Of a stretch of DNA of 36,703 nucleotides, positions 21,376 to 36,382 are shown one piece after another. Origin of the DNA: Candidatus Bipolaricaulota bacterium (GTDB lineage Bacteria; Bipolaricaulota; Bipolaricaulia; UBA7950; UBA9294); NCBI GenBank assembly GCA_026390315.1, contig JAPLGE010000069.1, forward strand, positions 1-36,703, given 5' to 3'. Made by a program: the position numbers and the translations under genes. Each line of letters starts with the position of its first letter. Positions within the stretch are counted from its first letter, which is position 1. The notes beneath the pieces were generated by a model, which saw nothing but the letters and a program-made list of their open reading frames with translations, searched no databases and was not told where the DNA came from.

Positions 21376-21654
21376 ATGACCGAGCGCCAGATGCAGATTA
21401 CGGCCGACAACGAGGCCCGTCGAGGAGGCTACTCCAACCTCGCCCTCATCTCTCACCGCAAGGAGGAGTTCGTCGTCGACTTCCTGTTCGTCGACCCTCA
21501 GACGCAGGCGGCGAAGGCCGATCAGGCGCTCCTCGTCTCCCGGGTGATCCTCAACCCGGGCCACATGAAGCGGCTCTTCCAGGCGATGGGGGAGAACATC
21601 GAGAAGTACGAGAAGAACTTCGGGAAGATCATTCTCCCCCCCACGCTCAAGTGA
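21376..21654 (+). CDS. DUF3467-family small protein
   Basis: SD GGAGG, ATG 21376; GGYSNLALISH...EFVVDF...SRVILNPGHMKR...YEKNFG. Confidence 0.85.
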   Translation: MTERQMQITADNEARRGGYSNLALISHRKEEFVVDFLFVDPQTQAAKADQALLVSRVILNPGHMKRLFQAMGENIEKYEKNFGKIILPPTLK

Positions 21655-21691
21655 CGGCGTCCCCGCGCGCTGGGGACCCGTCGGAGAACGC

Positions 21692-22939
21692 ATGAGCCCG
21701 ATCGATCGCTTTGTCGACCTGAAGGAACGGGTCCTGAGGACGATCCTGGCGCGGCGGGTGACGCTTGGGGTCTTCGCCGGGGTGGCCCTGGTCGTGAAGT
21801 TCACGAGCGGGATCAGCTACTTGAACCCACTCTACTACACTCCGGTTGCGTGGTTCCTCCTGACCTTCCCCTTCGCCACGCTCGTGCGGCGGCAGAAGAG
21901 CGAGCGCTGGCTCCACTGGGTGCACACCGGTTACTTCCTCGCCGAGATCGCCCTCATCACCCTCTTCGTGCACTGGATGGGCGGAAGCGAGTGGATCGGG
22001 AACATCTTCTACCTCTTCACGGTGATCACCGCGAACTTCTTCCTGCCCCGGATGCAGGGCTACCTCGTGACGGCCGTGGTCATCCTCCTGTACGCAGGGC
22101 TCGCCCTTCTCGAGTACGCCGGCGTCATCCCGCATCGGTCCCTGTTCGCCCTTCTGGGCGAGCCGCATCGCAGCCTCTCTTACACCCTCACGACGATCCT
22201 CGCCGGGGTCGTTGGGGTCTACTTGGTCCTCACGTACACGGTGCGGACGTTCACCGAAATCGACGCGAACAAGAACCGGATGCTCGCGAAGCGAGAGGCC
22301 GAGCTCGCCGCTCTTTCCAACCGCCTCCTCTCGGCTCAGGACGTCGAACGACGCCGGATCGCCCACGAGCTGCACGACACCCTTGGGCAGTCGCTTGCTG
22401 CCGTGAGGCTCCGCCTGGCCGCGCTCCGCGACCGCATCGGCGCGGACGAGCACGAGGCGATGGCCGCGACCGTCGATCAGGCGATTCGGGAGACGCGGAC
22501 ACTCGCCTACTCGCTCCGCCCTCCCCTTCTCGACGACCTGGGCCTCGTTCCGTCGCTTCGCCGACTGGCGGCGATGGTGAGGGAGGGAAGTGGCCTCGAG
22601 GTCCTGCTGGAGCTCGAGGAAGGGGAGCGCCCTTCGGGTGCCGTCGAGAGCCTCCTCTTCTCCGTCGCACAGGAGGCGCTCTCGAACGTGGAGCGCCACG
22701 CGAAGGCGCGCAGGGTCGTGATTCGCCTGCGCCGCCATCCAGGGCGGCTTGGCTTTGAGGTCGAGGACGACGGAGTGGGGTTCCGGCCGGAGGACCGAAG
22801 TGGGCTTGGCTTGCGCGGGATGGTGGAGCGGGTGGAGGCGGCCGGGGGGAGGGTTCACGTCGTCTCCTCTCCCGGCAGCGGGGCACGGATCAGCGTGGAG
22901 GTACCCTGTGAGACCGATCCGGGTCCTCGTTGTGGATGA
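21692..22939 (+). CDS. Membrane sensor histidine kinase (HisKA_3; NarX/UhpB/DesK class)
   Basis: About 6 N-terminal TM helices, H-box ERRRIAHELHD, N-box QEALSNVERHA, G-boxes DDGVGF and GLGLRGM. Confidence 0.93.
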   Translation: MSPIDRFVDLKERVLRTILARRVTLGVFAGVALVVKFTSGISYLNPLYYTPVAWFLLTFPFATLVRRQKSERWLHWVHTGYFLAEIALITLFVHWMGGSEWIGNIFYLFTVITANFFLPRMQGYLVTAVVILLYAGLALLEYAGVIPHRSLFALLGEPHRSLSYTLTTILAGVVGVYLVLTYTVRTFTEIDANKNRMLAKREAELAALSNRLLSAQDVERRRIAHELHDTLGQSLAAVRLRLAALRDRIGADEHEAMAATVDQAIRETRTLAYSLRPPLLDDLGLVPSLRRLAAMVREGSGLEVLLELEEGERPSGAVESLLFSVAQEALSNVERHAKARRVVIRLRRHPGRLGFEVEDDGVGFRPEDRSGLGLRGMVERVEAAGGRVHVVSSPGSGARISVEVPCETDPGPRCG

Positions 22940-23501
22940 TCATGCCCTCGTGCGGCACGGGCTCGTGCGACTGCTCGCCACGTTGGACGGGGTGGAGGTC
23001 GTCGGAGCGGCCGAAGACGGGGAGAGCGCGATCCGCCTCGCGGCGGAAACCCGTCCCGACGTCGTCCTTCTCGACCTCTCCATGCCTCGTCTCGACGGGA
23101 TGAGCGCCCTTCCCCGGCTTCGCGAGGTCGCGCCGGCGAGCCGGGTCCTCGTCCTCAGCATGCACGACGAGCCTGAATACGCGCAGGCGGCCGTCCAGAT
23201 GGGTGCGAGCGGACTCGTCTCCAAGGCGGCGTCGAGCGAGACCCTCTCTGGAGCGATCCGCGCCGTGGCGGCCGGGAAAACCCTCGAGCCGGAGGCCGGC
23301 CTGACGCCGCGCGAGGAGGAGGTCCTCTCTCTCGTGGCCTTCGGCCGGAAGAACGAGGAGATCGCGCGCGCCCTCGGGATCCAGCCCAAGACCGTCGAAC
23401 ACCACTGTGGGCGCCTCATGTCCAAGCTCGGCGTTCGCACGCGCGCCGGGCTCGTGGCCCACGCCAGGAGGATCGGCCTCCGACCGCCCGCGGGCAGTTG
23501 A
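22908..23501 (+). CDS. NarL/FixJ-family response regulator 1
   Basis: GTG 22908 (SD GGAGG); VVDDH, LLDLSMP, LSMH, LuxR-type HTH LTPREEEVL. Confidence 0.93.
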   Translation: MRPIRVLVVDDHALVRHGLVRLLATLDGVEVVGAAEDGESAIRLAAETRPDVVLLDLSMPRLDGMSALPRLREVAPASRVLVLSMHDEPEYAQAAVQMGASGLVSKAASSETLSGAIRAVAAGKTLEPEAGLTPREEEVLSLVAFGRKNEEIARALGIQPKTVEHHCGRLMSKLGVRTRAGLVAHARRIGLRPPAGS

Positions 23502-23551
23502 TACATTCTCCCCATGCCCGCCGGCGAACTTGTAGGTTAGAATGGATCGTG

Positions 23552-24187
23552 ATGAGAGCGATCCGGGTAGTCCTGGGAGACGATCACGTCCTCGTTCGCG
23601 AGGGGATCAAGGCGTGCCTTGAGTCGCCCCGCGTCCTCGTCGTGGGCGAGGCGGAGGACGGGCGGGAGTTGGTGCGGTGCGTGCAGGCCTTGCGTCCTGA
23701 CATCGCGCTCGTCGACGTGTCGATGCCCCTTCTCAATGGGATCGAGGCCACTCGGCAGATCGCGCGGATCTCTCCGGGAACGCGCGTCGTGATCCTCTCC
23801 ATGTTCGACGACAAGGGCACCGTTTCGAGCGCCCGGGATGCCGGCGCCTGGGCCTACGTCCTGAAGGACGAGGCTCCGGATCACCTCGTGCGGACGATCG
23901 AACGCGTCCACGAGGGAGAACGCTCGTTCCCTGCGGGAACGGAGGGCCTCCCGTCCCCCAAGTCGCCCGTCGACCTGACGCCCCGGGAGCGCGAGGTTCT
24001 CCAGCTCGTCGCGGAAGGGATGCGGAGCGCGGAGATGGCGAGGGTCATGAAGCGGAGCGTCTGCACCATTCGGAACCACCGCGCGCGGCTGATGAAGAAA
24101 CTGGGCGTTCGGACGGCGGCGGCGCTTGTGGAGAAGGCCGAGGAACTCGGCGTGGTCCGCCTCGAGGCCGCGCGGAGGAGCGCATGA
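23552..24187 (+). CDS. NarL/FixJ-family response regulator 2
   Basis: LGDDH, LVDVSMP, YVLK, LTPREREVL HTH; stop overlaps the next start (ATGA). Confidence 0.92.
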   Translation: MRAIRVVLGDDHVLVREGIKACLESPRVLVVGEAEDGRELVRCVQALRPDIALVDVSMPLLNGIEATRQIARISPGTRVVILSMFDDKGTVSSARDAGAWAYVLKDEAPDHLVRTIERVHEGERSFPAGTEGLPSPKSPVDLTPREREVLQLVAEGMRSAEMARVMKRSVCTIRNHRARLMKKLGVRTAAALVEKAEELGVVRLEAARRSA

Positions 24188-25173
24188 GCGACCCCGTCGT
24201 GCTGACGCGCCACCGCGCGTTGATCGAGGGAGGGCTCTCCACGGCACTCGCGGGGAGCTCCTTCCTGCACAAGGTCCTTCGCTACCACTTGGGCTTAGAG
24301 GACGAGGACGGGACGCCGCAGCGAAAGACGGGGAAGCTCCTGCGGCCGAGCCTCGCGCTCCATTCTGCGGGCGAGCTGGGAGGCGACCTTGAGAAGGCCC
24401 TTCCCGCCGCGGTGGCCCTCGAGATGGTGCACAACTTCTCGCTCATTCACGACGACATCCAGGACCGCGACGAGACCCGACGAGGACGCGCGGCCGTGTG
24501 GGTGATCCACGGGACGGCGCAGGCGATCAACTCAGGCGACCTCCTCCAGGCCCTCGCTGTCCGCGAGGCCCTGCGCTCCGGGGCGGCGGTCGCGCAGGCC
24601 CTGGTCGAGTCGACCGCCGAGATGATCGAGGGGCAGGCGCTCGACCTCGGCTTCGAGGGGTGCCCGGCCGGCGTCCGCGCGTACGTCGACATGATCGATC
24701 GCAAGACAGGAGCCCTCATTCGATGCGCGTTCCGCATCGGCGGCCTCCTGGCCCTCGCGTCGGGCGACACGCTCGATCGCCTGGACGACCTCGGAAAGCA
24801 CCTCGGGCGCGCCTTCCAGATCCGCGACGACGTGCTCGGGATTTGGGGAAAGGAGGAGGCGACGGGGAAGCCGGCCGGGTCGGACATCCGGCGCCGGAAG
24901 ACGTCGCTTCCGGCGGCGCTTGGCTTCGAGCTCGCTCGGGGCAAGGACCGCGCCATTCTGGAAAGAGTCTACGGACAGGAGGCGGTGACGGACGCGGACG
25001 TGGCCGCGGCCACCCAGGTGCTGGAGCGGCTCGAGGTTCGCGACGAGGCCGAGGGGTGGCTCTCAGAGTCCCTTGGTGCGGCAGAGATCGCCCTAGGGAA
25101 GGCCGGATTCTCCCGCCGAGGGGCCGAGGAGATGGAGGAGCTCTTGACGTACCTGGAGAGAAGAGAGCGATGA
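24184..25173 (+). CDS. Short-chain polyprenyl diphosphate (FPP/GGPP) synthase
   Basis: GKLLRP, first Asp-rich motif NFSLIHDDIQD..RRG, GQALD, KTG, FQIRDD. Confidence 0.92.
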   Translation: MSDPVVLTRHRALIEGGLSTALAGSSFLHKVLRYHLGLEDEDGTPQRKTGKLLRPSLALHSAGELGGDLEKALPAAVALEMVHNFSLIHDDIQDRDETRRGRAAVWVIHGTAQAINSGDLLQALAVREALRSGAAVAQALVESTAEMIEGQALDLGFEGCPAGVRAYVDMIDRKTGALIRCAFRIGGLLALASGDTLDRLDDLGKHLGRAFQIRDDVLGIWGKEEATGKPAGSDIRRRKTSLPAALGFELARGKDRAILERVYGQEAVTDADVAAATQVLERLEVRDEAEGWLSESLGAAEIALGKAGFSRRGAEEMEELLTYLERRER

Positions 25174-26174
25174 GACGGCCGTGGCGGCTCGACCTCCGCA
25201 TGGCGAGGTACCTCCTCGCGCAGAAGGCCAAGCGTCGGACGCACTTCCCGTTCGTCACAATGCTCGAACCGCTCGAGGCGTGCAACCTGCGCTGCGCGGG
25301 GTGCGGCCGGGTGCGCGAGTACGCCGCGGTCATGGACCGCCGCCTCGCGGGCGACGCGTGTCTCGAGGCGGTGCACGCCTCGGGAGCGCCGATTGTCTCT
25401 ATCTCCGGCGGGGAGCCTCTTCTGCACGCGGAGATCGCCGCGATCGCGCGCGCGATCATCGAGGAGAGGCGTTTTGTCTACCTGTGCACGAACGGCCTCC
25501 TGCTCGGGGAGACGCTCGACCGGTTCCGGCCGTCGCCCTACCTCTCGTTCGTCGTCCACCTGGACGGGACCGAGGCGGTACACGACCGCGTGACCGCCCG
25601 GCCCGGGACCTACCGCACGGCGATCGCAGGGATTCGGCAGGCGATCGCGAGAGGCTTCCGCGTCAGCACGAACACGACCCTCTTCCGCGGCTCGGACGTC
25701 GAGGACCTCCACCGCCTCTTCTCGACCCTCACGGCGTTTGGGGTCGAGGGGCTGATGGTCTCCCCCGGCTACGCCTACAGGGACGCAACCGATCAAGGGT
25801 TCTTCCTCGACCGGCAAGAATCGATCGAGGTCTTCCGGCGGGTCCTGGATCCGGCGAAGGGGTATCGGTTCTACAACAACCCCCTCTACCTCGACTTCCT
25901 CCGGGGCGAGCGTGACGTGGACTGCGCCGCCTGGACGACGGTGACCTATACCGTCCTCGGCTGGCGGAAGCCCTGCTACGTCCTCGCGGACGAGCACGTC
26001 GAGGACGTGCAGGAGCTCCTCAATCCGGCTCTCTGGGCGGCGTACGGGCCCGGACGGGACCGTCGCTGCGCGAACTGCATGATGCACTCTTCATTCGAGG
26101 GGGCAAGCATCCTGGAGGCCTTCTCCCGACCGCGCGACCTCCTCACCGTGGCGCGAGAGGAGCGCAGAGGGTGA
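25170..26174 (+). CDS. hpnH: Adenosyl-hopene transferase HpnH (radical SAM)
   Basis: ATG 25170; MLEPLEACNLRCAGC (CxxxCxxC), GGEP, YLCTNG, WRKPCY, RCANCMMHS; lies in the shc operon. Confidence 0.92.
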   Translation: MRRPWRLDLRMARYLLAQKAKRRTHFPFVTMLEPLEACNLRCAGCGRVREYAAVMDRRLAGDACLEAVHASGAPIVSISGGEPLLHAEIAAIARAIIEERRFVYLCTNGLLLGETLDRFRPSPYLSFVVHLDGTEAVHDRVTARPGTYRTAIAGIRQAIARGFRVSTNTTLFRGSDVEDLHRLFSTLTAFGVEGLMVSPGYAYRDATDQGFFLDRQESIEVFRRVLDPAKGYRFYNNPLYLDFLRGERDVDCAAWTTVTYTVLGWRKPCYVLADEHVEDVQELLNPALWAAYGPGRDRRCANCMMHSSFEGASILEAFSRPRDLLTVAREERRG

Positions 26175-26803
26175 TCGTGGTGACCACGTGCTTCTGGGTA
26201 GAGAGAGCCTGGATCCCGCAGCTTCGCGGGGTCCGTCTTGTCCGCACGCCGATGGGCGAGCCGGCGGCGTCGTCGCTCGAGCGGACGATCGGCCAGGAGG
26301 TGCCGGACCTTCTTCTCGCGACGGGCTTCTGCGGCGCGCTCGATCCGCGGCTCGAGGCCGGCGACCTCGTCCTCGCGGAGGGGATCGAGGACCGCGAGGG
26401 GAGGGTTCCGATCGATCGGCTGCTCGCCGATCGGGCCGCATCGGGTCTCGCGGCGCGTGGGATCCCGGCGACGAGGGCGACGCTTCTCGCGGCGCCGGGC
26501 GTCGTGGGGTCGCGCGAGGAGAAGGCGAGGCTTCGCGAAGGCGGGGCCGCGGCGGTCGACATGGAGAGCGGTCCGCTCGCCCGCTTCGCGGCACGACGAG
26601 GCATCCCCTTCCTCGCGCTTCGCGCGGTCCTTGACTCCGCGGGAGAGGATCTCCCCTTCGCGGGGGGCGGGGATCTCGTCCGATCGACCGCCGCGCACCC
26701 GCTCCGCGCGCTCCGGGCGGCTCGCTCCGCCCTCATCGCGGGCCGCGCGCTCGGCCGGGCGGTTCCGGCCGCCCTCGCCGCGGTCGAAGGAGGGCTCGCG
26801 TGA
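26171..26803 (+). CDS. hpnG: Hopanoid-associated nucleoside phosphorylase HpnG
   Basis: GFCGALDPRLEAGDLV, AVDMES, LRAVLD (PNP/MTAN fold); follows hpnH. Confidence 0.85.
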   Translation: MIVVTTCFWVERAWIPQLRGVRLVRTPMGEPAASSLERTIGQEVPDLLLATGFCGALDPRLEAGDLVLAEGIEDREGRVPIDRLLADRAASGLAARGIPATRATLLAAPGVVGSREEKARLREGGAAAVDMESGPLARFAARRGIPFLALRAVLDSAGEDLPFAGGGDLVRSTAAHPLRALRAARSALIAGRALGRAVPAALAAVEGGLA

Positions 26804-27861
26804 CGCGGCGCGCGGTGACCGTCGGAGACGTTCGCATCGGAGGAGGGGCCCCGATCGTCGTTCAGTCCATGACGAACACCGACACGCGCGACGTGGCGGC
26901 GACCGTCGCTCAGATCGCGCTTCTCGAACGAGCCGGGTGCGAGATTGTCCGCGTCGCGGTGCCCGACCGCGCGGCAGGAGAAGCCCTGAAGGAGATCGTC
27001 GGGCGGGCTCCGGTGCCGCTCGTCGCGGACATCCATTTCGACCATCGCCTCGCCCTGCAGGCGATCGAGGCCGGCGTGGCGAAGCTGCGCTTGAACCCGG
27101 GGAACCTCACGGACCGCAGGAAAATCGCAGACATCGTCCGTGCGGCGGGCGAGGCCGGGATCCCGATTCGCGTCGGCGCGAACTCCGGCTCCCTCGCTCG
27201 GAGGTTCCGCGACGCCCACGGGCGGCCGACCGCAGAAGGGCTCGTCTCGAGTGCCCTCGAGGAAGTCCGGCTGCTGGAGGAGCTCGGGTTCGACCAGATC
27301 GTGATCTCGGTCAAGGGCACGGACGTTCCGATGACCGTGGCCGCCTATCGCGACGTCGTGCAGAAGGTCGACTATCCGCTTCACATCGGAATCACCGAGG
27401 CGGGCACGGCCCGGGAGGGGGCGATCCGCTCGTCGGTCGGACTGGGAATCCTCCTCGCGGAAGGGCTCGGAGACACGCTTCGCGTCTCGCTCGCTGCCGA
27501 TCCAGTCGAGGAGGTCCGCGTGGCGTACGAGATCCTGCGGGCCCTCGGCCTGCGGGAGCGGGGGATCTGCTACCGGGTCTGCCCGACGTGCGGCCGGACC
27601 GAGGTAGACCTCGTGAGGATCGCCCGAGAGGTCGAGGAGGCGCTCGTCGACGTGATCCAGCCGCTCACCGTGGCCCTGATGGGGTGCGTGGTGAACGGCC
27701 TGGGCGAGGCCGGGGAGGCGGACGTCGCCCTCGTGGGTGGGCCCCACAGCGGGACGGTGTATGTCGACGGAGAACCGGTCGACCGCGCGGTGCTGGAGGC
27801 GGGCCTCGCGGAAGCCGTGATCCGCGCCGTGCGCGCGAAGGTGGGCTCCCATGACGGCTAG
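26800..27861 (+). CDS. ispG: HMBPP synthase IspG
   Basis: IVVQSMTNT, VADIHF, RLNPGN, PLHIGITEAG, GDTLRVSL, CPTCGR, MGCVVNG. Confidence 0.96.
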   Translation: MTRRAVTVGDVRIGGGAPIVVQSMTNTDTRDVAATVAQIALLERAGCEIVRVAVPDRAAGEALKEIVGRAPVPLVADIHFDHRLALQAIEAGVAKLRLNPGNLTDRRKIADIVRAAGEAGIPIRVGANSGSLARRFRDAHGRPTAEGLVSSALEEVRLLEELGFDQIVISVKGTDVPMTVAAYRDVVQKVDYPLHIGITEAGTAREGAIRSSVGLGILLAEGLGDTLRVSLAADPVEEVRVAYEILRALGLRERGICYRVCPTCGRTEVDLVRIAREVEEALVDVIQPLTVALMGCVVNGLGEAGEADVALVGGPHSGTVYVDGEPVDRAVLEAGLAEAVIRAVRAKVGSHDG

Positions 27862-29791
27862 GGCCGGGCAGGACGTCGCGCCGAGACTCCGTGCGTCGAG
27901 CGAGGCCATCGACCTCGCGGTGGATCGAGCCGTCTCGCACCTCCTCGCGGTTCAAGGCGACGAAGGCTATTGGTGGGGGGAGCTCGAATCGAACGTCACG
28001 ATCACGGCGGAGCACCTCTTCTTGACGCACATCCTGGGCGCCGGCGACGCCGGCGAGTGGGAGAAGATCGCGCGCTATCTTCTCTCGAAGCAGCGGTCCG
28101 ACGGGACCTGGGCGAACTGGTACGACGGGCCGGGGAATCTCTCGACCACGATCGAGGCCTATCTCGCGCTCAAGATGGCGGGGACCTCCGCCGACGCGCC
28201 CGCGATGACGCGCGCCTGCGAGGCGATCCTTTCTTTGGGCGGGATCGAGGAGGCGCGGGTCTTCACGAAGATCTGGCTCGCCCTGCTCGGCGAGTGGGAC
28301 TGGCGGGGAACGCCGGTCCTTCCGCCGGAGCTCGTCCTCCTTCCGGGTTGGTCCCCCCTCAGCATCTACTCCTTCGCCTGCTGGGCCCGCGGGACGATCG
28401 TTCCGATGACGATCATCCGCACGCTTCGGCCGGTCTTCCCCCTCCCGCGCTTCGCGCACGTCGACGAGCTCTTCGTCCGCGGAAGGGAGAGGGCGGAGCT
28501 TGCGCTTCCCCGGTCGCACCGCTCCGCCTGGGCGACGCTCTTCCTCGCGGCGGACCGGGCCTTGCGCGCTACCGAGCGCCTCCCGGTGAAGCCCTTCCGG
28601 CGGCGAGCGATCCGCGCGGCGGAACGGTGGATCGTGGCGCATCAAGAGGAGGACGGCTCCTGGGGCGGGATCCAGCCACCCTGGGTCTACTCGCTCATCG
28701 CGCTTCACGCGCTCGGCTACCCCTCGGAGCACCCCGTGATCCGCCGCGGCCTGGCTGGCTTCACCGGGCCGAAGGGCTTCGCGATCGAGGAAGAGGAGTC
28801 CTTCCGGCTCCAGTCCTGCCTCTCCCCGGTCTGGGACACGGGGCTCGCCATGCTCGCTCTGGAGGAGGCCGGCTTGGCGGAAGACCACCCGGCGCTCGTC
28901 CGGGCCGGCGAATGGCTCCTCGACGAGCAGATCCTCTCCGGCGGAGACTGGCAGGTCCGCTCGTCGGGGCGCCCCGGAGGATGGGCGTTTGAGTTCTCGA
29001 ACGACCTCTACCCGGACACCGACGACGCGGCGATCGTGGTCGCTGCCCTCTCCGGAGCCAAGCTCGACCCGGTGCGGAAGCGCGAGGCGATCGAGCGGGC
29101 CGCCGATTGGCTCCTGGCCATGCAGAGCCGAAACGGCGGTTGGGGGGCCTTCGACCGCAACAACACGCAGTCCTGGTTGCGGGAGATCCCGTTCGCCGAC
29201 TTCGGGGAGATGATCGACCCGCCCTCGGCGGACGTCACGGCGCACATCGTTGAGGTCTTGGGGCGACTCGGCTTCCTCCGCCCCGGCACCCGACGGCTCG
29301 ATCGCGCCCTCCGTTACCTCGAGGGAGAGCAGGAGGCCGACGGGGCGTGGTTCGGACGGTGGGGGGTGAACCTCACGTACGGGATCGGAGCGGTCCTCCC
29401 CGCCCTGGAAGCTGCGGGCGTGCCGGCGGAGGCTCCCGCGGTCCGCCGAGCGGTCGGCTGGCTCCTGGATCATCAGAACGCCGACGGCGGATGGGGGGAG
29501 CGCGTGGAGGGCGTGGATCCGCTCTCCAGGGGTCGCGGACCCTCCACTCCCTCGCAGACGGCCTGGGCCCTCATGGGTCTGATCGCGGCCGGCGAGGGAA
29601 GGCACCCGGCCGCGCAGCGTGGGGCCGAGTTCCTCGTCTCACGCCAGAAGGCCGACGGGAGCTGGGACGAGCCCGAGTTCACGGGGACGGGGTTCCCGAT
29701 CGACTTCATGATCAACTACCACCTCTACCGAGACGTCTTCCCGCTCTTGGCTCTCGGACGCTATCGCAAGGCCGCCGGGGAGGTCGCGTGA
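27851..29791 (+). CDS. shc: Squalene-hopene cyclase (HpnF)
   Basis: Catalytic DTDD, SPVWDT, GGWAFE, several QW repeats (QRSDGTW, QEEDGSW, QNADGGW, QKADGSW), TGTGFP. Confidence 0.97.
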   Translation: MTARAGQDVAPRLRASSEAIDLAVDRAVSHLLAVQGDEGYWWGELESNVTITAEHLFLTHILGAGDAGEWEKIARYLLSKQRSDGTWANWYDGPGNLSTTIEAYLALKMAGTSADAPAMTRACEAILSLGGIEEARVFTKIWLALLGEWDWRGTPVLPPELVLLPGWSPLSIYSFACWARGTIVPMTIIRTLRPVFPLPRFAHVDELFVRGRERAELALPRSHRSAWATLFLAADRALRATERLPVKPFRRRAIRAAERWIVAHQEEDGSWGGIQPPWVYSLIALHALGYPSEHPVIRRGLAGFTGPKGFAIEEEESFRLQSCLSPVWDTGLAMLALEEAGLAEDHPALVRAGEWLLDEQILSGGDWQVRSSGRPGGWAFEFSNDLYPDTDDAAIVVAALSGAKLDPVRKREAIERAADWLLAMQSRNGGWGAFDRNNTQSWLREIPFADFGEMIDPPSADVTAHIVEVLGRLGFLRPGTRRLDRALRYLEGEQEADGAWFGRWGVNLTYGIGAVLPALEAAGVPAEAPAVRRAVGWLLDHQNADGGWGERVEGVDPLSRGRGPSTPSQTAWALMGLIAAGEGRHPAAQRGAEFLVSRQKADGSWDEPEFTGTGFPIDFMINYHLYRDVFPLLALGRYRKAAGEVA

Positions 29792-30645
29792 AGGTCGTGA
29801 AGGCGAACGTCCTCGGGTTCTGCTTCGGCGTCCGGCGTGCCGTGACGATGATCGAGACGGAGCTCGAGAAGTCGGGGGACCTGGCGACCCTGGGGGCGAT
29901 CGTCCACAACACGCACGTCGTCGACGGCCTAGCGAAGAAGGGAGGCCGGCTGGTTCGGACTCTCGACGACGTCCCGGCGGGGGGCGCCGTCGCCATCACG
30001 GCGCACGGCGCGGGGGAGGAGGTATACGAGGAGAGCAAGCGACGGGGGCTCCGCCTGATCGACACGACTTGCCCGATCGTGCGGCGGGCGCAGGAAGCGG
30101 CGGCCAAGCTCGTCGAAGAGGGTTTCTTCGTCGTCCTCTACGGCGAAGCAGAGCACCCGGAAGTGCGGGGGATCCTCTCCTGGACGCGGGGCCAGGGCTT
30201 GGCGACGCACGCTCCGGAGGTCGACGTTCCCATCCCCACGAATGCGAAGGGGATCGCGATCATCGCCCAGACGACCAAGCACCCGGCGCTGTTCGCCGAG
30301 TTCGTCCAGGCCTTGACCAAGCGCTACACCGTGCGCGTGCCGGAGATCCGCATCGTCGACACGACGTGCCCGGAGACCGGCCGTCGCTATCAGGCCGCCC
30401 GCGAGCTGGCCGGAGACGTCGACGTCATGGTCGTGGTCGGGAGTCGGTCCTCGGCCAACACGCGGAAGCTGGCGGAGACGTGCCGTGCCACGGGGAGGCC
30501 GACGTACCACATCGAGTCAGCGTCGGAGATTGACGAGGCGTGGTTCTCGCACGCGAAACGGTTCGGAGTGACGGCGGGGGCGTCGACGCCCGACGACCTG
30601 ATCGACGCCGTGGTCGAACGACTTGAGAAAGGGGGCGGGAGGTGA
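29788..30645 (+). CDS. ispH: HMBPP reductase IspH (LytB)
   Basis: GTG 29788; GFCFGV, IVHN, DTTCPIV, HPEV, QTT, third Cys in DTTCPET, GVTAGASTP. Confidence 0.95.
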   Translation: MKVVKANVLGFCFGVRRAVTMIETELEKSGDLATLGAIVHNTHVVDGLAKKGGRLVRTLDDVPAGGAVAITAHGAGEEVYEESKRRGLRLIDTTCPIVRRAQEAAAKLVEEGFFVVLYGEAEHPEVRGILSWTRGQGLATHAPEVDVPIPTNAKGIAIIAQTTKHPALFAEFVQALTKRYTVRVPEIRIVDTTCPETGRRYQAARELAGDVDVMVVVGSRSSANTRKLAETCRATGRPTYHIESASEIDEAWFSHAKRFGVTAGASTPDDLIDAVVERLEKGGGR

Positions 30646-31169
30646 AGAGAAGAGAAGAACGGGAGGGCGCTCCGCGCCTCCGCTCGACGGCGGCGACGCG
30701 ACCGCGCGCCGAGGAGGAGCCGGCGGTCCAGATCCATCGAGAGGTCGTCCGCAGGACGGCGACGAGGGCAGCCGAGTTCATCGACATCACCGGCGAGGTG
30801 GAACGAATCCTCGGACGCTCCGCCATCCGCGAAGGCTCGGTCTTCGTCTTCTCCCGGCACACGACGGCGGCGATCGTGATCAACGAACACGAGCCGCTCC
30901 TCCTTCACGACATGACGCACTTCCTCGAGCGGACCGTCCCCCGCGAGGGCGACTACCAGCACAACGACTTCACCATCCGGACCGCGAACATGACCGAGGA
31001 CGAGTGCCCGAACGGCCACGCGCACTGTCAGCACCTGGTTCTGGGGACGAGCGAGTGGATCCCCGTCTCGGAGGGGGCGCTCCTGCTCGGGAAGTGGCAG
31101 CGGATCTTCCTCGTCGAGCTCGACCGTCCGCGCGAGCGGGAGGTCGTCGTTCAGGTTCAGGGATGGTAG
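30642..31169 (+). CDS. yjbQ: YjbQ/UPF0047 family protein
   Basis: FIDIT, HTTAAIVINE, NGHAH, LGKWQRIFLVELDRPR; overlaps both ispH and hpnC. Confidence 0.9.
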   Translation: MKRREEREGAPRLRSTAATRPRAEEEPAVQIHREVVRRTATRAAEFIDITGEVERILGRSAIREGSVFVFSRHTTAAIVINEHEPLLLHDMTHFLERTVPREGDYQHNDFTIRTANMTEDECPNGHAHCQHLVLGTSEWIPVSEGALLLGKWQRIFLVELDRPREREVVVQVQGW

Positions 31170-32071
31170 AGGCGCACCTCGCCGCCGTGATCAAGCCGCC
31201 GGACCGCCGGCCGACGGTCGCCGAGGCGGCGGACCTGTGCCTTCGGCTCGCCCGGACGCACTACGAGAACTTCGCGGTCGTCTCGTGGCTCACCCCTCGC
31301 CGGATGAGGGTCCACGTCGCGGCGCTCTACGCCTACTGCCGGACGGTGGACGACCTCGGCGACGAGGCGGCCGGGGACCGCGTGGAGCTCCTCGACCGCT
31401 TCGAGGCGGAGCTTGGCGCCGCCTATCGGGGCGCGGCGCGGCACCCGGTGCTCGTTGCCCTGGAACGGACGATCGAGACGTTCGCGCTCCCCGAGGAGCC
31501 CTTCCGGAAGCTCATCGAGGCGAACCGCATCGACCAAACGAAGCGCCGCTACGCGACTTTTGCCGAGCTCCTCGACTACTGCGACCATTCGGCGAACCCC
31601 GTGGGGCGCCTGTTCCTTCACCTCTTCGGTTACCGTGACGAGGAGAGGCTCGCCCTATCGGACGCAACCTGCACGGCGCTTCAGCTCACGAACTTCTGGC
31701 AGGACCTCCGGCGCGACCACTCGGCGGGGCGGATCTACCTCCCCGAGGACGACCGCGCGGCGTGGGGCGTGTCGGAGGCGGATCTTCTCGCCGCGACGGC
31801 GACGGACGAGCTCCGGGGGTTGATCGAGTCCCTCGTCGAGCGGACGAGGGACTACTTCCGTAAAGGCCTTCCCCTACTCGATCGCGTGCGCGGCCGTCTC
31901 TGGGTCGACCTCGCCCTCTTCTCGCGAGGGGGCCTCGCCATCCTGGAGAAGCTCGAGGAGCAACGGTGGGATCCGCTCAAGAGGAGGCCCGTCCTCTCAG
32001 GCGGCGAGAAGCTCGGCCTCTTCGCGAAGACGCTCGTCTTGCGGGATTGGGAGCGATGGATCGAGCGCTGA
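31163..32071 (+). CDS. hpnC: Hydroxysqualene synthase HpnC
   Basis: ATG 31163; HYENF, YAYCRTVDDLGDE, SANPVGR, LQLTNFWQD. Confidence 0.92.
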   Translation: MVEAHLAAVIKPPDRRPTVAEAADLCLRLARTHYENFAVVSWLTPRRMRVHVAALYAYCRTVDDLGDEAAGDRVELLDRFEAELGAAYRGAARHPVLVALERTIETFALPEEPFRKLIEANRIDQTKRRYATFAELLDYCDHSANPVGRLFLHLFGYRDEERLALSDATCTALQLTNFWQDLRRDHSAGRIYLPEDDRAAWGVSEADLLAATATDELRGLIESLVERTRDYFRKGLPLLDRVRGRLWVDLALFSRGGLAILEKLEEQRWDPLKRRPVLSGGEKLGLFAKTLVLRDWERWIER

Positions 32072-32931
32072 GGGCGAGCTATCGGGCCTGCGCGCGACTG
32101 ACGCGGCGGGAGGCGAGGAACTTCTACCTTGGGTTTGCGACCCTGCCGCGGCGGAAGCGACTCGCGGTCTGTGCCGTGTACGCCTTCTGCCGCGAGGCCG
32201 ACGACATCGCCGACGGAGAGACCCCACTCGAGACGAAGAAGGCCGGGCTCGCCGAGCTGCGGGGCCGCCTCGCGCAAGCCGCCTCCGGAGCGCCGTCCGG
32301 TGAGAGAGACCTCGCCTTGGCGGACGCGATCGCGCGATTCTCCGTGGATCCGCAGGACCTCGCGGACGTGGTCGCGGGCGTCGAGATGGACCTTCGGGCC
32401 ACGCGCGTCGCGACGTACGCCGAACTCCGGCGCTACGCCGAGCTTGTGGCTTCGGCCGCGGGCCTCGCGATCCTTCCCGTCCTCGCGTGGAGGCGAGGCG
32501 GCGCCCGGGTCACGCCCCAGGCTCGGGCCGCGGCGGTGGAGCTTGGGGTGGGAATGCAGCTCGTGAACGTCCTCCGCGACGTGAAGGAGGATGCGGAGCG
32601 CGGCCGGATCTACCTTCCCCGGGAAGACCTGGTACGGTTCGACGTGACCGAGGAGGCGCTCTCTTGCGGGGTGATCGAAGGGGGGACCCGCGCGCTCCTT
32701 GCCTTCGAAGCCGAGCGGGCGCGTGAGGCCCTGAAGAAGGCTTCGGACCTCGCGTCGCGCCTCCCCCGCCACGCGCGCGGCTGCCTGGCCCTTCTTGGCG
32801 CGATCTACTCCCGCCTCCTCGATCGGATCGACGCCCGCGGCTACGACGTGTTCGGCCCGCGGATCTGCCTCACGGGCGGGGAGAAGCTCTGGCTCTTCGT
32901 CCGAACCTACCTCCGCGCGACCTTCCGATGA
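32056..32931 (+). CDS. hpnD: Presqualene diphosphate synthase HpnD
   Basis: ATG 32056; NFYLGF, YAFCREADDIAD, MQLVNVLRDVKEDAERGRIYLP; lies between hpnC and hpnE. Confidence 0.88.
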   Translation: MDRALRASYRACARLTRREARNFYLGFATLPRRKRLAVCAVYAFCREADDIADGETPLETKKAGLAELRGRLAQAASGAPSGERDLALADAIARFSVDPQDLADVVAGVEMDLRATRVATYAELRRYAELVASAAGLAILPVLAWRRGGARVTPQARAAAVELGVGMQLVNVLRDVKEDAERGRIYLPREDLVRFDVTEEALSCGVIEGGTRALLAFEAERAREALKKASDLASRLPRHARGCLALLGAIYSRLLDRIDARGYDVFGPRICLTGGEKLWLFVRTYLRATFR

Positions 32932-34229
32932 GAGAGGCGATCGTTGTCGGCGGCGGAGCCGCGGGGACGAGCGCTGCCGCCTCTCTCGCCGAGCGAGGGA
33001 TCCGCGTCCTCCTGCTCGAGCGGTCGGCTCGCCTGGGAGGGAGGGCGGCATCGTTCTCGTTTGAGAGACGCGGGGAGGAGGTAGACACCGGCGAGCACGT
33101 CCTCTTGCGCTGCTGCACGGAGGTCGTGGCGCTTCTCGCGCAGCTTGGAGTTGAGGAGAGCGTCGCGTTCCAGCCGAGGCTCCGTGTTCCGATGCGGAGC
33201 GGATCGCGTCGGACGGTCCTCCGCTCGAGTCCCCTTCCCGGGCCGCTCCACCTTCTCCCGGGCCTCCTTGGCTACAACCTACTCCATGTCCGGGAGCGGT
33301 GGCGGGCCGTGGGGACGGCGGCCCGGCTTCTCTTGGGAGGATCGAGTCAAGAGGAGACGTTCCGCGACTGGCTCGAGCGGCGAGGCGAGTCGCGCGCGGC
33401 GATCGAGAGGCTGTGGGATCCGATCTCCGTCGCCACGCTGAACGCCCACGCGAACACGGCGCGGCTCGACCTCGCGGCCAAGGTCTTCCGTGACGCCTTC
33501 TCGAGGCCCCACGGCGCAGACCTTGGCTTCTTCACGCGGCCCCTGTCCCGCGTCTTTTCGGCGATCGTCCTCTACCTTGCCGCGCGGGGCGGAGCGGTGC
33601 GCCTCGGCGCGCGGGTCGACGCGATCCTCGCGAACGGCGGCGCCGTGCGCGGCGTGCGGCTTGCGACCGGCGAGGTCCTGGAGAGCGACGCGGTCGTCGC
33701 GGCGGTCCCTCCCTTCGACCTGGGACGGCTCCTTCCCCGCGAGGCCGTGGGCGACGCGTACCTCGCCGGGCTCGGCCGGCTGCGGTGGGCGCCCATCGTG
33801 AACGTCCACCTGTGGTTTGACCGGCCGGTGCTCGAAGACCCGTTCACCGTGTGCGTCGACTCCCGCCTCCAAGCGGTCTTCGACGTCTCGCGGCTCCACA
33901 ACCAGACGGGCGCGACGCACCTCGTCCTCTCGCAGAGCGCGGCGGAGGAGTGGCTCTCCCTCTCCCCGGCCGAGATCGAGGTGGCGCTCCTTCCGGAGCT
34001 GCGCCGCGCCTTTCCCGAGGGGGAGGGCGCGAAGCGCCTCGACGCGCTCGTGGTGAAGCATCCGCGCGCGACCTGGGTCCCCGGGCCGGGAAGCGAGAGG
34101 GATCGGCTGTCTCCGCTCACCCCGATTCGCGGGCTCGTCCTCGCCGGAGACGCGACGACGACCGGCTGGCCGTCGACGCTCGAAGGGGCGGTGCGGTCCG
34201 GGCGGACCGCGGCTGGGCTCCTCCTCTGA
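32928..34229 (+). CDS. hpnE: Hydroxysqualene dehydroxylase HpnE
   Basis: GGGAAG dinucleotide fold, LGGRA, DTGEH, PIVNVHLWFD, LAGD..TGWPSTLEGAVRSG. Confidence 0.9.
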   Translation: MREAIVVGGGAAGTSAAASLAERGIRVLLLERSARLGGRAASFSFERRGEEVDTGEHVLLRCCTEVVALLAQLGVEESVAFQPRLRVPMRSGSRRTVLRSSPLPGPLHLLPGLLGYNLLHVRERWRAVGTAARLLLGGSSQEETFRDWLERRGESRAAIERLWDPISVATLNAHANTARLDLAAKVFRDAFSRPHGADLGFFTRPLSRVFSAIVLYLAARGGAVRLGARVDAILANGGAVRGVRLATGEVLESDAVVAAVPPFDLGRLLPREAVGDAYLAGLGRLRWAPIVNVHLWFDRPVLEDPFTVCVDSRLQAVFDVSRLHNQTGATHLVLSQSAAEEWLSLSPAEIEVALLPELRRAFPEGEGAKRLDALVVKHPRATWVPGPGSERDRLSPLTPIRGLVLAGDATTTGWPSTLEGAVRSGRTAAGLLL

Positions 34230-34331
34230 CCTCGCCCGTGGGCCACGGGCGAGAGGCCTCGCGAGACCCTGCGAAGCGAAGCCGTCGCCGGGCGTTCGGA
34301 CGATGCCGCTCGCTCGCACGTCCGTATGCTC

Positions 34332-34360
34332 TTGACACCCTCGAAGAGGTGCGCTAGGAT
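34332..34360 (+). promoter_or_regulatory. Sigma70 promoter for the aconitase operon
   Basis: Consensus TTGACA (34332-34337), 17-nt spacer, TAGGAT (34355-34360). Confidence 0.8.
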
Positions 34361-34364
34361 GAGA

Positions 34365-34400
34365 GTCGCAGATTGAGAAGTCAGTCTCATATTCCGGGAA
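34365..34400 (+). promoter_or_regulatory. Putative repressor operator (possibly for the downstream IclR)
   Basis: TCGCA-gat-TGAGA and TGAGA-N6-TCTCA dyads just downstream of the -10 element. Confidence 0.45.
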
Positions 34401-34481
34401 GGCTGACCGGACCGCGGAGGCTCCGCTGGGGCCGTCGCATCGAAAAGAACGGCGCTGTGGCGTCTAGGAGAGGTGGTGTCC

Positions 34482-36377
34482 GTGCCGAAGACGATGACGG
34501 AGAAGATCCTCGCCGAGCACATTCGCGAGGGGCGGCTTGAGAAGGGGACCGAAGTCGGCATCAAGATCGACCAGTGCTTGACGCAGGACTCGACCGGGAC
34601 GATGGCGTGGCTTGAGTTCGAGTCGCTGGGTCTCGACAAGGTGAAGGCGGAGGTGGTCGTCTCCTACAGCGACCACACGTCGCTCGGGTTCAAGGGCGAG
34701 TCGACGGACGACCACATCTTCCTCCAGACGATCGCCTCCCACTACGGGGCGAAGTTCTCGAAGAACGGAAACGGCGTCTGCCACCAGGTGCACTACGAGC
34801 GGTTCGGCGTGCCCGGAAAGACGCTCCTCGGATCGGACTCCCACACCCCCACGGCCGGCGGGATCGGGATGCTTGGGATCGGGGCCGGCGGAGCGGACGT
34901 CGCCGTGGCCATGAGCGGAGGCCTCTTCTACGTCGCCGTTCCCAAGGTGATGCAGGTCGTGCTCAAAGGGAAGCTCCCCTGGGGCGTGACGGCCAAGGAC
35001 GTCGCTCTGGAAATCCTGCGGCGGATCACGGTCAAGGGCGGGGTCGGCTACTTCCTCGAGTTCTCCGGTCTGGGCGTGAAGACCCTCTCGGTACCCGAGC
35101 GCGCGACGATCACGAACATGTGCACCGAGACCGGCGCCACCTCCTCCGTCTTCCCTTCGGACCTCGTGACCAAGCGCTTCTTCGAGATGCAGAATAGAGC
35201 GAAGGACTGGGTCGAGTTTGGCCCGGACAAGGGCGCGACCTACGACCAGACCCTCGAGATCGACCTCTCGACGCTCGTCCCGCTCGTTGCCATGCCGGGG
35301 AGCCCGGACAACGTCAAGCCGGTGACCGAGGTCGCGGGGACGAAGGTCGACCAGGTCTTCATCGGCTCGTGCACGAACGGCGGCTACCGCGATATCCGGG
35401 TCACGGCCGAGATGCTCAAAGGGAAGCACGTCTCGCCGGACATCGACGTGATCGTGTCGCCGGGGTCGCGCCAGGCGTGGGAGATGCTCGTCAAGGACGG
35501 AAGCTTCCTCGCTCTGACCGAGGCGGGCGTCCGCATGATCGAGCCAGGCTGCAACGCCTGCATCGGGATCGGCTTTGTCCCGGGCACGAACTCTCTCTCG
35601 CTTCGCACCGTGAACCGCAACTGGAAAGGCCGCGGCGGGAACGAGCTCGGGAAGCTCGCCCTCACGAGCCCCGAAGTGGCGGCGGCTTCCGCCCTCGAGG
35701 GGAAGATCGCCGACCCGCGGAGGCTCCCGCCGGTCGTCGTGCGCGTGACGAAGCTGATCGTCGACGACACGATGATCCTCGAGCCCAAGGGGAAGTCGGT
35801 CGAGATCCGCCGTGCGCCGAACATCGCCAAGATAGCGGCGCCGCGCCCGCTCCCGCCGGTGCTCAAGGGTGAGGTGCTGCTGAAGGTTGGGGACGGCATC
35901 TCGACGGACGCCATCGTCCCGGCCGGCCCGCTCACCCAGCACCTGCGCTCGAACCTCCCCGAGATCGCGAAGTTCACCTTCCACTACGAGGACAAGACCT
36001 TCGCCGCTCGCGCGGCGGAGAAGGGAGGAGGATTCCTCGTCGCGGGCGACAACTACGGCCAGGGCTCGTCGCGCGAGCACGCGGCTCTTGCTCCCTGGCA
36101 GCTCGGGATCAAGGCGGTCTTCGCCAAGAGCTACGCCCGCATCCACCGGGCGAATCTGATCAACGTCGGCATCGTCCCGTTCGTGTGCGACACGACGGGG
36201 ATCGACCAGGGCGACTCCCTTGAGATCGACGTCTCGAACCTGAAGGGGACGCTCCTTCTGCGGAACAAGACCAAGGGGACGACGATCCCGGTCCGTCACG
36301 ACCTCTCCGAGCGCGACATCCGCATGGTCAAGGCGGGCGGACTGCTCGCCATGGGGATCGCGGACCAGAAGAGGTAG
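34482..36377 (+). CDS. Aconitate hydratase (short single-chain type)
   Basis: TQDSTG, DH, GVCHQ, DSHT, three Fe-S Cys (GSCTN, GCNACIG), NRNW, NYGQGSSREHAA. Confidence 0.93.
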   Translation: MPKTMTEKILAEHIREGRLEKGTEVGIKIDQCLTQDSTGTMAWLEFESLGLDKVKAEVVVSYSDHTSLGFKGESTDDHIFLQTIASHYGAKFSKNGNGVCHQVHYERFGVPGKTLLGSDSHTPTAGGIGMLGIGAGGADVAVAMSGGLFYVAVPKVMQVVLKGKLPWGVTAKDVALEILRRITVKGGVGYFLEFSGLGVKTLSVPERATITNMCTETGATSSVFPSDLVTKRFFEMQNRAKDWVEFGPDKGATYDQTLEIDLSTLVPLVAMPGSPDNVKPVTEVAGTKVDQVFIGSCTNGGYRDIRVTAEMLKGKHVSPDIDVIVSPGSRQAWEMLVKDGSFLALTEAGVRMIEPGCNACIGIGFVPGTNSLSLRTVNRNWKGRGGNELGKLALTSPEVAAASALEGKIADPRRLPPVVVRVTKLIVDDTMILEPKGKSVEIRRAPNIAKIAAPRPLPPVLKGEVLLKVGDGISTDAIVPAGPLTQHLRSNLPEIAKFTFHYEDKTFAARAAEKGGGFLVAGDNYGQGSSREHAALAPWQLGIKAVFAKSYARIHRANLINVGIVPFVCDTTGIDQGDSLEIDVSNLKGTLLLRNKTKGTTIPVRHDLSERDIRMVKAGGLLAMGIADQKR

Positions 36378-36382
36378 GAGGA

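Follow-up and report, generated by a model that had tools for sequence, protein, structure and literature searches.

A predicted operon for oxygen-independent hopanoid synthesis in an anaerobic Candidatus Bipolaricaulota bacterium

Could an uncultured, anaerobic sediment bacterium from the candidate phylum Bipolaricaulota make hopanoid membrane lipids without oxygen? The question is raised by a gene cluster on contig JAPLGE010000069.1 of GenBank assembly GCA_026390315.1. We analyzed all 36,703 nucleotides of this contig, which we call the window. A first-pass annotation had described ten co-directional, overlapping genes at 24184-34229 as a compact route to C35 hopanoids. We believe that these genes belong to a 13-gene operon with which an anaerobic member of the phylum would make hopanoids without oxygen. 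We give this reading, which is drawn from the genes, a probability of roughly 0.8. The chemistry is ordinary, but the host lineage is not recognized as a hopanoid producer.

Enzymes of the proposed pathway

The products of shc (squalene-hopene cyclase, or SHC), hpnH, hpnC, hpnE, ispG, ispH, and yjbQ all score above the curated cut-offs of their NCBIfam families (Table 1). A DxDD proton donor and QW repeats typify squalene-hopene cyclases; other motifs likewise define the other families. Residues 21-641 of the window's SHC align with the solved SHC of Alicyclobacillus (1gsz_A; 667 bits), with DTDD (residues 389-392) aligned on DVDD, and the protein has eight QW-like motifs (Q-x(2-5)-G-x-W/F). 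From our reading of the alignment, what we take to be the cavity residues of the Alicyclobacillus enzyme appear to be kept as well. On the models for two rival families, tetrahymanol synthase (172.1 bits) and oxidosqualene cyclase (274.7 bits), the window's SHC scores below the cut-offs.

HpnH has the Radical_SAM and DUF3463 domains, and its CxxxCxxC motif reads CNLRCAGC (at residue 38). The next gene encodes a protein with the PNP_UDP_1 fold (Pfam PF01048, 3.3e-22). Its best NCBIfam family is HpnG; futalosine hydrolase gives 41.9 bits. Opposite VEMEA and RAVSDLAN of the methylthioadenosine/S-adenosylhomocysteine nucleosidases, it has VDMES and RAVLDSAG (these stretches are individually weak, with independent E-values of 0.04-0.08). 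Of the 32 closest loci, 22 have such a gene in the slot between hpnH and ispG or shc, with 39-50% identity, and most of the rest are cut by the end of a contig. (We looked for SHC relatives in one genome per prokaryote species, found 85, and kept 80. The closest loci are the 32 whose SHC is 61-73% identical to the window's.)

The genes hpnC, hpnD, and hpnE are adjacent and co-directional, with overlaps of 16 and 4 nt, and the triplet is found in 19 of the 32 closest loci. HpnC has the motifs DDLGD (at residue 63) and DLRRD (181), HpnD has DDIAD (49) and DVKED (175), and HpnE has GGGAAG as its GxGxxG motif (at residue 8). The best family for HpnD is TIGR03465, followed by cyanobacterial CrtB at 207.6 bits. 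The polyprenyl diphosphate synthase (pps) has DDIQD at residue 90 and DDVLG at 215.

The pathway steps are those described for HpnCDE, SHC, HpnH, and HpnG of proteobacteria and of Streptomyces. (The gene order, families, catalytic motifs, conservation, and distribution are what we observed; the chemical steps, the products, and the regulation are carried over from characterized families.) IspG and IspH would complete the methylerythritol phosphate (MEP) pathway and yield isopentenyl diphosphate and dimethylallyl diphosphate, and the polyprenyl synthase would supply farnesyl diphosphate (FPP). HpnD would join two FPP into presqualene diphosphate, HpnC would turn this into hydroxysqualene, and HpnE would reduce it to squalene. 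SHC would protonate squalene and cyclize it to diploptene and diplopterol. HpnH would then combine diploptene with a 5'-deoxyadenosyl radical to give the C35 compound adenosylhopane. Finally, the HpnG-like enzyme would strip off the adenine to leave ribosylhopane, which might be carried on to bacteriohopanetetrol. As proposed, none of these steps would require O2. The first-pass annotation had described the route as O2-independent, and the gene set supports this.

The predicted products are diploptene or diplopterol and C35 compounds of the adenosyl- or ribosylhopane type. We expect them to be unmethylated and simple because neither methylases nor side-chain tailoring enzymes were found. In general domain scans of 58 open reading frames (ORFs) of the window (13 + 45), no domains like those of HpnI, HpnJ, HpnK, HpnO, HpnP, HpnR, or HpnN turned up. 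The genome as a whole is 1.76 Mb in 223 contigs and is estimated to be 90.9% complete and 2.2% contaminated; what we say about absences from it holds for about 91% completeness. In this genome, HpnI, HpnK, and HpnR had no match, and the best score for HpnJ was 37.3 bits (cut-off 577.6). The nearest relatives of HpnN are two RND-type proteins, at G000:C190:10125-12137 (265 bits) and G000:C174:958-2934 (254 bits), where G000 is the window's own genome; these are possible lipid exporters. The first-pass annotation had noted that the window has no tailoring, methylation, or hpnN genes and had predicted unmethylated, simple extended hopanoids. The absence of HpnI, HpnJ, HpnK, HpnR, and a true HpnN from the genome carries the first statement beyond the window and favors the second.

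A tblastn search with the window's proteins found no second copy of ispG, ispH, the prenyl synthase, shc, or any hpn gene in the genome. The phylum-wide scan for IspH likewise gave one match there. These ispG, ispH, and prenyl synthase genes are housekeeping genes inside the operon, not dedicated duplicates. Because it holds the only ispG, ispH, and prenyl synthase, the operon is the organism's isoprenoid operon and not a dispensable add-on.

The anaerobic lifestyle that the first-pass annotation had guessed at agrees with the genome, in which neither a heme-copper oxidase (COX1) nor cytochrome bd was found. CdhC/acetyl-CoA synthase was not found either, which is uninformative, as the control set had no acetogen.

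Layout, regulators, and conservation of the operon

All ten genes from pps to hpnE lie on the + strand at the coordinates first proposed, and all nine junctions between them overlap (by 4, 4, 4, 11, 4, 4, 7, 16, and 4 nt). The 4-nt overlaps are ATGA or GTGA. A GGAGG-like motif lies 5-10 nt 5' of most starts. (For yjbQ, the GTG at 30642 is the only canonical in-frame start ahead of the conserved domain.) Pfam and NCBIfam led us to the same ten gene names, with HpnG and HpnD below the NCBIfam cut-offs. The chain does not begin at 24184, however: the stop of the upstream regulator overlaps the start of pps by 4 nt. The operon probably comprises 13 genes, including a two-component system, rather than 10. 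All 13 ORFs, from the kinase to hpnE, are intact, and they overlap or nearly do so. Overlaps by themselves are common in compact genomes; we think that the operon is beyond chance because the gene order is conserved.

Table 1. Genes of the operon and features beyond its 3' end, with positions in the window
Feature	Position	Strand	Evidence
Sensor histidine kinase	21692..22939	+	Pfam HisKA_3 1.9e-12, HATPase_c 4.4e-13
Response regulator 1 (receiver and LuxR/GerE helix-turn-helix)	22908..23501	+	Response_reg 1.2e-27, GerE 9.6e-17
Response regulator 2 (receiver and LuxR/GerE helix-turn-helix)	23552..24187	+	Response_reg 1.2e-24, GerE 2.6e-13
pps, short-chain trans-polyprenyl diphosphate synthase	24184..25173	+	Pfam polyprenyl_synt 6.3e-58
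hpnH, radical-SAM (S-adenosylmethionine) adenosyl-hopene transferase	25170..26174	+	TIGR03470 402.9 bits, cut-off 225.05
hpnG-like nucleosidase/phosphorylase	26171..26803	+	HpnG TIGR03468 113.9 bits, below cut-off 187.1
[quoted passage not shown]
shc, squalene-hopene cyclase	27851..29791	+	TIGR01507 809.2 bits, cut-off 431.1
ispH, HMBPP reductase	29788..30645	+	TIGR00216 251.8 bits, cut-off 187.85
yjbQ (UPF0047)	30642..31169	+	TIGR00149 121.9 bits, cut-off 67.75
hpnC, predicted: presqualene diphosphate to hydroxysqualene	31163..32071	+	TIGR03464 325.1 bits, cut-off 250.45
hpnD, predicted: 2 FPP to presqualene diphosphate	32056..32931	+	TIGR03465 250.6 bits, below cut-off 278.6
hpnE, FAD (flavin adenine dinucleotide)-dependent hydroxysqualene dehydroxylase, last gene of the unit	32928..34229	+	TIGR03467 374.5 bits, cut-off 283.05
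10-bp GC-rich hairpin without U-tract, directly 3' of the hpnE stop	34231..34253	+	Fold -22.1 kcal/mol
Sigma-70-like promoter match in the gap before the aconitase gene	34332..34360	+	TTGACA-17-TAGGAT, 10/12 matches

Beyond hpnE, a 243-nt gap leads to an aconitase gene. The promoter match in this gap marks the downstream boundary of the unit; it is the one sigma-70-like site in 20000-36703, where 0.5 would be expected. We rejected the hairpin after hpnE as a signal, as it folds no better than chance (z -1.20; 25 of 200 shuffles fold at least as well).

The complete order, from the kinase and two regulators through pps-hpnH-hpnG-ispG-shc-ispH-yjbQ to hpnC-hpnD-hpnE, is found in 13 of the 32 closest loci. 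Another 3 lack only ispG, 15 are partial with the same order (many are cut by the end of a contig), and 1 has shc alone. Whole or in part, the same order is thus present in 31 of the 32, with 39-78% amino-acid identity per gene. In 7 of these loci the aconitase gene also lies downstream, with 76-78% identity.

We then surveyed 184 species genomes of the phylum, counting SHC and HpnH proteins above the curated cut-offs. (We code the families of the phylum as f1 to f11, with the window's genome in f1; g5 and g22 are genera.) SHC is present in 110 of the 184 genomes and HpnH in 121, which answers the call of the first-pass annotation for a survey of shc across the phylum. At E <= 0.001, SHC matches are found in 121 genomes, in 47 of the 71 best-quality genomes, and in 35 of 54 genera. 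By family, SHC and HpnH are found in 55 and 59 of the 73 genomes of f1, in 43 and 43 of the 50 of f3, and in 17 and 19 of the 19 of f6. Both also occur in f10 (3/4), f4, and f5, and both are absent from f2, f7, f8, f9, and f11. In short, the hopanoid genes are a trait of much of the phylum and are not peculiar to the window's contig. A homologue of squalene/phytoene synthase (SQS_PSY, PF00494) is found in 80 of the 184 genomes, including 53 of 73 in f1, 19 of 19 in f6, and 3 of 4 in f10.

In two single-contig genomes from the phylum, SHC and HpnH are encoded about 3.5 kb apart. One of these is G006 (f3, 99% complete; L094, G006:C1:1412000-1431000), whose cluster has the same order, ends at yjbQ, and lacks hpnCDE. 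(A flag for one TGA inside the SHC of five g22 genomes was dropped, as the G006 gene is one open frame.) In f6, one genome (G054; L092 and L093, contigs C137 and C168) has the operon without shc and a cyclase of about 51% identity on another contig, and one genome of this family has two SHC copies.

Some clusters are eroded. In G118 (f1; L089, G118:C13:43000-62999), pps-hpnH-hpnG-ispG-ispH-hpnE-aconitase remain and shc, yjbQ, hpnC, and hpnD are gone. In G129 (f1; L087, G129:C1:147000-166999), only the kinase, the regulators, pps, and hpnH are left, and in f2 only ispG-ispH-yjbQ remain. Because of such erosion, there are genomes with HpnH homologues above the cut-off and no SHC.

The kinase and regulators at the head of the operon have the features of the NarL class (HisKA_3 and HATPase_c in the kinase, receiver and GerE domains in the regulators, and a multi-span N-terminus). 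The kinase has six hydrophobic segments within residues 25-181 (six Kyte-Doolittle peaks of at least 1.43) and no large outside loop, an architecture that we presume to be like that of the intramembrane-sensing kinases DesK and LiaS. Its core resembles MctS, UhpB, and LiaS, each below the cut-off (for LiaS, 92.6 versus 450 bits), and its N-terminus matched none of the named families. Related loci also have the kinase upstream of the cluster, with 46-68% identity. Because of its position, conservation, and architecture, the two-component system is a candidate for control by membrane state, and as judged from these features the kinase and regulators most likely tune the operon's expression to the state of the membrane. 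Response regulator 1 likely starts at GTG 22908, which has GGAGG upstream and gives a 32-nt overlap with the kinase gene (the longest ORF starts at TTG 22749). Response regulator 2 starts either at ATG 23552, after a 50-nt gap, or at TTG 23498, with a 4-nt overlap; in relatives the gap between the two regulators is 54-63 nt.

The YjbQ of the operon belongs to a distinct subtype. It carries a conserved insertion of about 11 residues, in the segment NDFxxRTxNMTxDE[C/S]PNGHxHCQHL, that is missing from the genome's second paralogue (on contig C196, 35% identical) and from the solved homologue 1vph (which YjbQ matches, as 1vph_A, at 82.7 bits). An alignment of 29 sequences has 45 invariant columns, and the subtype also has a C-x3-H-x-H-C-x-H patch. 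The subtype is found in f1, f2, f3, f4, f5, f6, and f10, with 54-80% identity, and f7, f8, f9, and f11 have a distant paralogue only. It also lies between shc and hpnC in clusters from Chloroflexota, and in L033, L038, L041, L051, and L068 it adjoins shc or hpnC. In a sample of 251 genomes from one order of Chloroflexota, 142 have the YjbQ subtype and 128 have SHC; 79 have both, and in 71 of these 79, yjbQ is within 4 kb of shc.

Is this subtype specific to hopanoid synthesis? This idea was not supported. In f2, yjbQ is kept beside ispG-ispH in 4 of 4 genomes that lack SHC and HpnH, and among the Chloroflexota, besides the 79 genomes with both genes, 63 have yjbQ only, 49 have shc only, and 60 have neither. 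At the genome level, co-occurrence in Chloroflexota is weak (odds ratio 1.5, p 0.10, with kin that are not independent). The linkage of yjbQ to hopanoid genes is strong but not exclusive. A tie to the lack of Dxs, the entry enzyme of the MEP pathway, was rejected: f8 and f11 lack the subtype and also lack Dxs, yet they have IspH. A complex prediction for HpnC with YjbQ residues 36-175 scored 0.00, which speaks neither way.

The rest of the window needs only brief mention. Its G+C content is 66-71%, with many spurious frames. No Rfam families or tRNA genes were found in it, and 10 terminator-like sites were counted where 6.3 would be expected. The overlapping ORFs at 1394-2116 (-) and 1824-2582 (-) are in different frames and both match the chromate-transporter domain; they are either two short CHR genes or one frameshifted gene.

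Competing explanations

Several points weigh against our reading. First, the HpnG-like protein and HpnD fall below their curated cut-offs (Table 1), and the polyprenyl synthase scores above no NCBIfam equivalog cut-off (at best, 276 versus 450 bits), so that FPP is its presumed product. Second, a true HpnN transporter was not found in the genome (best 265.4 versus 751.85 bits). Third, f3 has SHC in 43 of 50 genomes and a squalene/phytoene-synthase homologue in 3 of 50, and some f1 genomes have eroded clusters. Fourth, the regulatory role of the two-component system is argued from position and conservation, and none of the sequencing runs that contain the stretch is an RNA run. Fifth, there is strain J31, described as the first cultured member of the Bipolaricaulota and an obligate anaerobe (November 2025 preprint, bioRxiv 10.1101/2025.11.21.689855); the preprint's accessible text reports fatty acids only and links a homologous cluster to a different compound.

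The last point is that Dxs is found in 0 of the 184 genomes of the phylum (at E <= 1e-90 or above the cut-off), which leaves the entry to the MEP pathway unexplained. On two single-contig genomes, which are 96% and 99% complete, the Dxs model gives just 42-48 bits. The window's genome does have Dxr, and IspH is above its cut-off in 158 of the 184 genomes and in all 11 families. An MEP pathway without Dxs is counted in 181 of 4,400 species, and called an open question, in a passage of PMC10663253. An apparent dxs match in the window's genome was rejected, as the protein is one part, the C-terminal subunit, of a transketolase split in two (G000:C139:64-1290, - strand; 291.3 bits, model positions 313-624). 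The N-terminal subunit is encoded in the window, at 6540-7511 (+; 298.5 bits, model positions 9-281).

The alternative that survives best, which we still consider improbable, follows from the J31 preprint: the genes would be a secondary-metabolite cluster, and the product would be a secreted, antibacterial, "terpenoid alkaloid-like" compound. The legend of its Fig. S12 gives an antiSMASH "complete" terpenoid cluster with YjbQ, IspH, SHC, a hypothetical protein, HpnH, a polyprenyl synthetase, and a response regulator (bioRxiv 10.1101/2025.11.21.689855). As listed there, these genes and their relative order match those of the window, with the hypothetical protein in the hpnG slot. The block lacks ispG and hpnCDE, has a DUF116 gene after yjbQ, and resembles the f3-type cluster of G006. 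The preprint names an active compound, J31-TP1, with C50H68N8 as a possible formula; it proposes an antibacterial product, and the stem "hopan" occurs 0 times in its accessible text. Its link from cluster to compound is by association only, with neither a mutant nor heterologous expression described. In the window, the gene set is exactly the hopanoid set, and other tailoring enzymes are absent from the unit. Adenosylhopane contains oxygen, unlike the formula of J31-TP1.

Slightly less probable still, we think, is that the cyclase makes another polycyclic triterpenoid, or that squalene goes mainly elsewhere (to C30 carotenoids, for instance), and that no hopanoids accumulate. The identity of a product cannot be read from a sequence with certainty, and the f3 genomes, with SHC and no recognizable squalene synthase, hint that substrate supply in the phylum is not fully understood. 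But SHC scores 809 bits as a hopene cyclase, versus 172 and 275 bits for the two rival families, and both its DxDD motif and its cavity residues appear to be kept. HpnH, which needs a hopene substrate, is conserved together with SHC, and the unit contains no carotenoid desaturase other than HpnE. The first-pass annotation had allowed for a cyclase with a non-hopanoid product; from its motifs, this SHC seems to keep the hallmarks of a hopene cyclase.

We rate it as very unlikely that the hopanoid genes are foreign, whether because the contig is mis-binned or chimeric or because the block was recently imported, by horizontal transfer, from some known producer. First, the host is what the first-pass annotation took it to be. 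The titles of the 32 closest SHC sequences name Ca. Bipolaricaulota, Acetothermia, or Bipolaricaulis in 14 cases, "uncultured Thermotogae" or Thermotogota in 15, "uncultured bacterium" in 2, and Desulfarculaceae in 1; the phylum name that we use comes from them. (The next tiers are Dehalococcoidia/Chloroflexi at 52-56% identity, Myxococcota at 50-55%, one Streptomyces at 54%, and Acidobacteriota at 45-46%.) ClpC, whose gene is also on this contig, follows the genome's placement in its genus and family: it is 89% identical to that of the genome from the same genus and 83-85% identical to those of the next genera of the family. The best relatives of the cluster genes are in the genera of the same family, and the downstream aconitase is syntenic in the 7 loci mentioned above. 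The G+C content of the cluster (0.69-0.715) is slightly above the genome mean of 0.660, but the contigs of the genome span 0.59-0.72, which takes in these values.

Second, the stretch is found in other samples. Contigs of four other metagenome runs (two from sediment, one from peat, and one from freshwater sediment) reach every one of the 30 bins of 17000-36703 with >=95% identity, and 17 runs contain at least half of the cluster's sampled words. Single contigs from other runs span 23262-27044, 29621-31699, 29252-31902, and 26122-27741, bridging response regulator 2 to ispG and shc to hpnC. The first-pass annotation had also considered a chimeric assembly, which these contigs from four runs speak against at the bridged junctions. 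The two single-contig genomes with SHC and HpnH also weigh against foreign genes. (Apparent "joints" in the run alignments, with sides of 20-24 letters, were discarded as noise.) Variants in the other samples are mostly single-base changes, many of which mark strain variants. Within shc, contigs from three of the four runs have a 3-nt in-frame insertion (ATA) behind 29511. In one run (X2), the depth is 2-9 over 17657-21598, versus 24-37 over the operon and 32.5 over 17000-17656; this segment upstream of the operon may vary between strains.

Third, we built two SHC trees. (Both used a "quick" method and the closest phyla only, and were rooted on Acidobacteriota or at the midpoint.) In the tree of 73 SHCs, the sequences of Bipolaricaulota type come together as a single group of 27 (SH-like approximate likelihood ratio test, SH-aLRT, 99), separate from Acidobacteriota and from a group of Chloroflexota and Myxococcota (95). 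With 53 rows, 17 of the 18 from f1 form a clade (SH-aLRT 99), in which the window pairs with its sister, genus g5 (96). The sister family of f1 is f3 (100), and f10 attaches to that pair (94). On the other side, f6 branches off deeply on its own (100), outside the f1/f3/f10 clade, and f4 and f5 fall among Chloroflexota and Myxococcota without resolution. Of the two origins that the first-pass annotation had proposed to separate with trees, vertical descent is supported within f1, f3, and f10, and the first origin is not told by them. The sole f1 row outside the f1 clade is G146, the one further genome in the window's genus, whose SHC is in the f3 clade. Its cluster, on an 11.5-kb contig (L096, G146:C51:1-11461), has an SHC 64% and a kinase 47% identical to the window's and lacks ispG and hpnCDE. 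This f3-type cluster is a case of mis-binning or of transfer within the phylum, so one or the other does occur in these bins.

Finally, a decaying operon that is no longer expressed is just as unlikely: the eroded relatives (G118, G129, and f2) show that decay occurs, but the window's ORFs are full length with their catalytic motifs, other samples differ mostly by single-base changes, with the one in-frame insertion besides, and the operon includes ispG, ispH, and prenyl synthase genes that have no second copy in the genome and that must be expressed.

Known hopanoid producers and what the operon may mean

In proteobacteria such as Zymomonas mobilis, Rhodopseudomonas palustris TIE-1, Bradyrhizobium, and Burkholderia, the hpn clusters contain hpnCDE, shc (hpnF), hpnG, and hpnH, often with ispH. 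Proteobacterial producers also have hpnN, hpnI/J/K, and hpnO, and often hpnP or hpnR. The window's SHC, HpnH, HpnC, and HpnE belong to the same equivalog families as theirs; its genome differs in that HpnI, HpnJ, HpnK, HpnR, and a true HpnN were not found, and its HpnG and HpnD are diverged. In the hopA-E region of S. coelicolor, MEP-pathway genes have been recruited into the cluster, and there is an aminotransferase for aminohopanoids. Among the loci that we compared, L074, from a Streptomyces sp., represents this type: it has hpnC, hpnD, and hpnE together with genes for a polyprenyl synthase, SHC, and HpnH, and the proteins have 39-54% identity to the window's. It differs in its gene order, in having no two-component system or yjbQ within 10 kb, and in its host, an aerobic actinomycete.

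Other strict or facultative anaerobes make hopanoids without O2, including Geobacter, Desulfovibrio, and the anammox Planctomycetes, and they established the principle to which the first-pass annotation appealed. The window comes from another phylum, and it has everything in one operon with the only ispG, ispH, and prenyl synthase and with a dedicated two-component system. A similar arrangement outside the phylum is in Chloroflexota loci labelled as Dehalococcoidia (L033, L038, L041, and L068), where pps, hpnH, (hpnG), shc, yjbQ, hpnC, hpnD, and hpnE are co-directional. These loci share the window's YjbQ subtype, placed between shc and hpnC, but they lack ispG, ispH, and the two-component system, and their SHCs (52-55% identical) are outside the f1/f3/f10 clade.

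We found no literature that links Bipolaricaulota or Acetothermia to hopanoids, in keeping with the first-pass annotation, which did not know the lineage as a producer. (The supplements of Lawrence et al. 2025, or Hoshino & Villanueva 2023, may tabulate the phylum.) Neither this phylum nor Chloroflexota, YjbQ, or ispH appears in the main text of a 2025 survey of hopanoid genes, which states that Thermotogota have no SHC (Lawrence et al. 2025). Lipid analysis is feasible because a first isolate of the phylum is reported, according to the J31 preprint.

The operon is also compact material for further work. It offers ten genes for heterologous hopanoid production without O2, a candidate regulatory sensor, and a conserved YjbQ subtype.

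A much broader picture is possible, although we regard it as doubtful. In it, Bipolaricaulota, which are common in anoxic sediments and peat as well as in hot springs and the subsurface, would be substantial, unrecognized anaerobic producers of hopanoids, both C30 and simple C35 forms, including the adenosylhopane type. Their operon would be wired to a membrane sensor kinase as a feedback loop on membrane state, and an uncharacterized enzyme of the YjbQ subtype, whose gene neighbors shc or hpnC in two phyla, would also take part.

Few molecular fossils are as abundant as the hopanes, and to interpret them one needs to know which organisms make hopanoids and where. Compounds of the adenosylhopane type serve as tracers of soil input. 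Near-identical DNA to that of the window is present in metagenomes of sediment, peat, and freshwater sediment from at least four studies. If the operon is expressed, then hopanoids, including those of the adenosylhopane type, could form in place in anoxic deposits, and readings of these biomarkers would have to allow for this.

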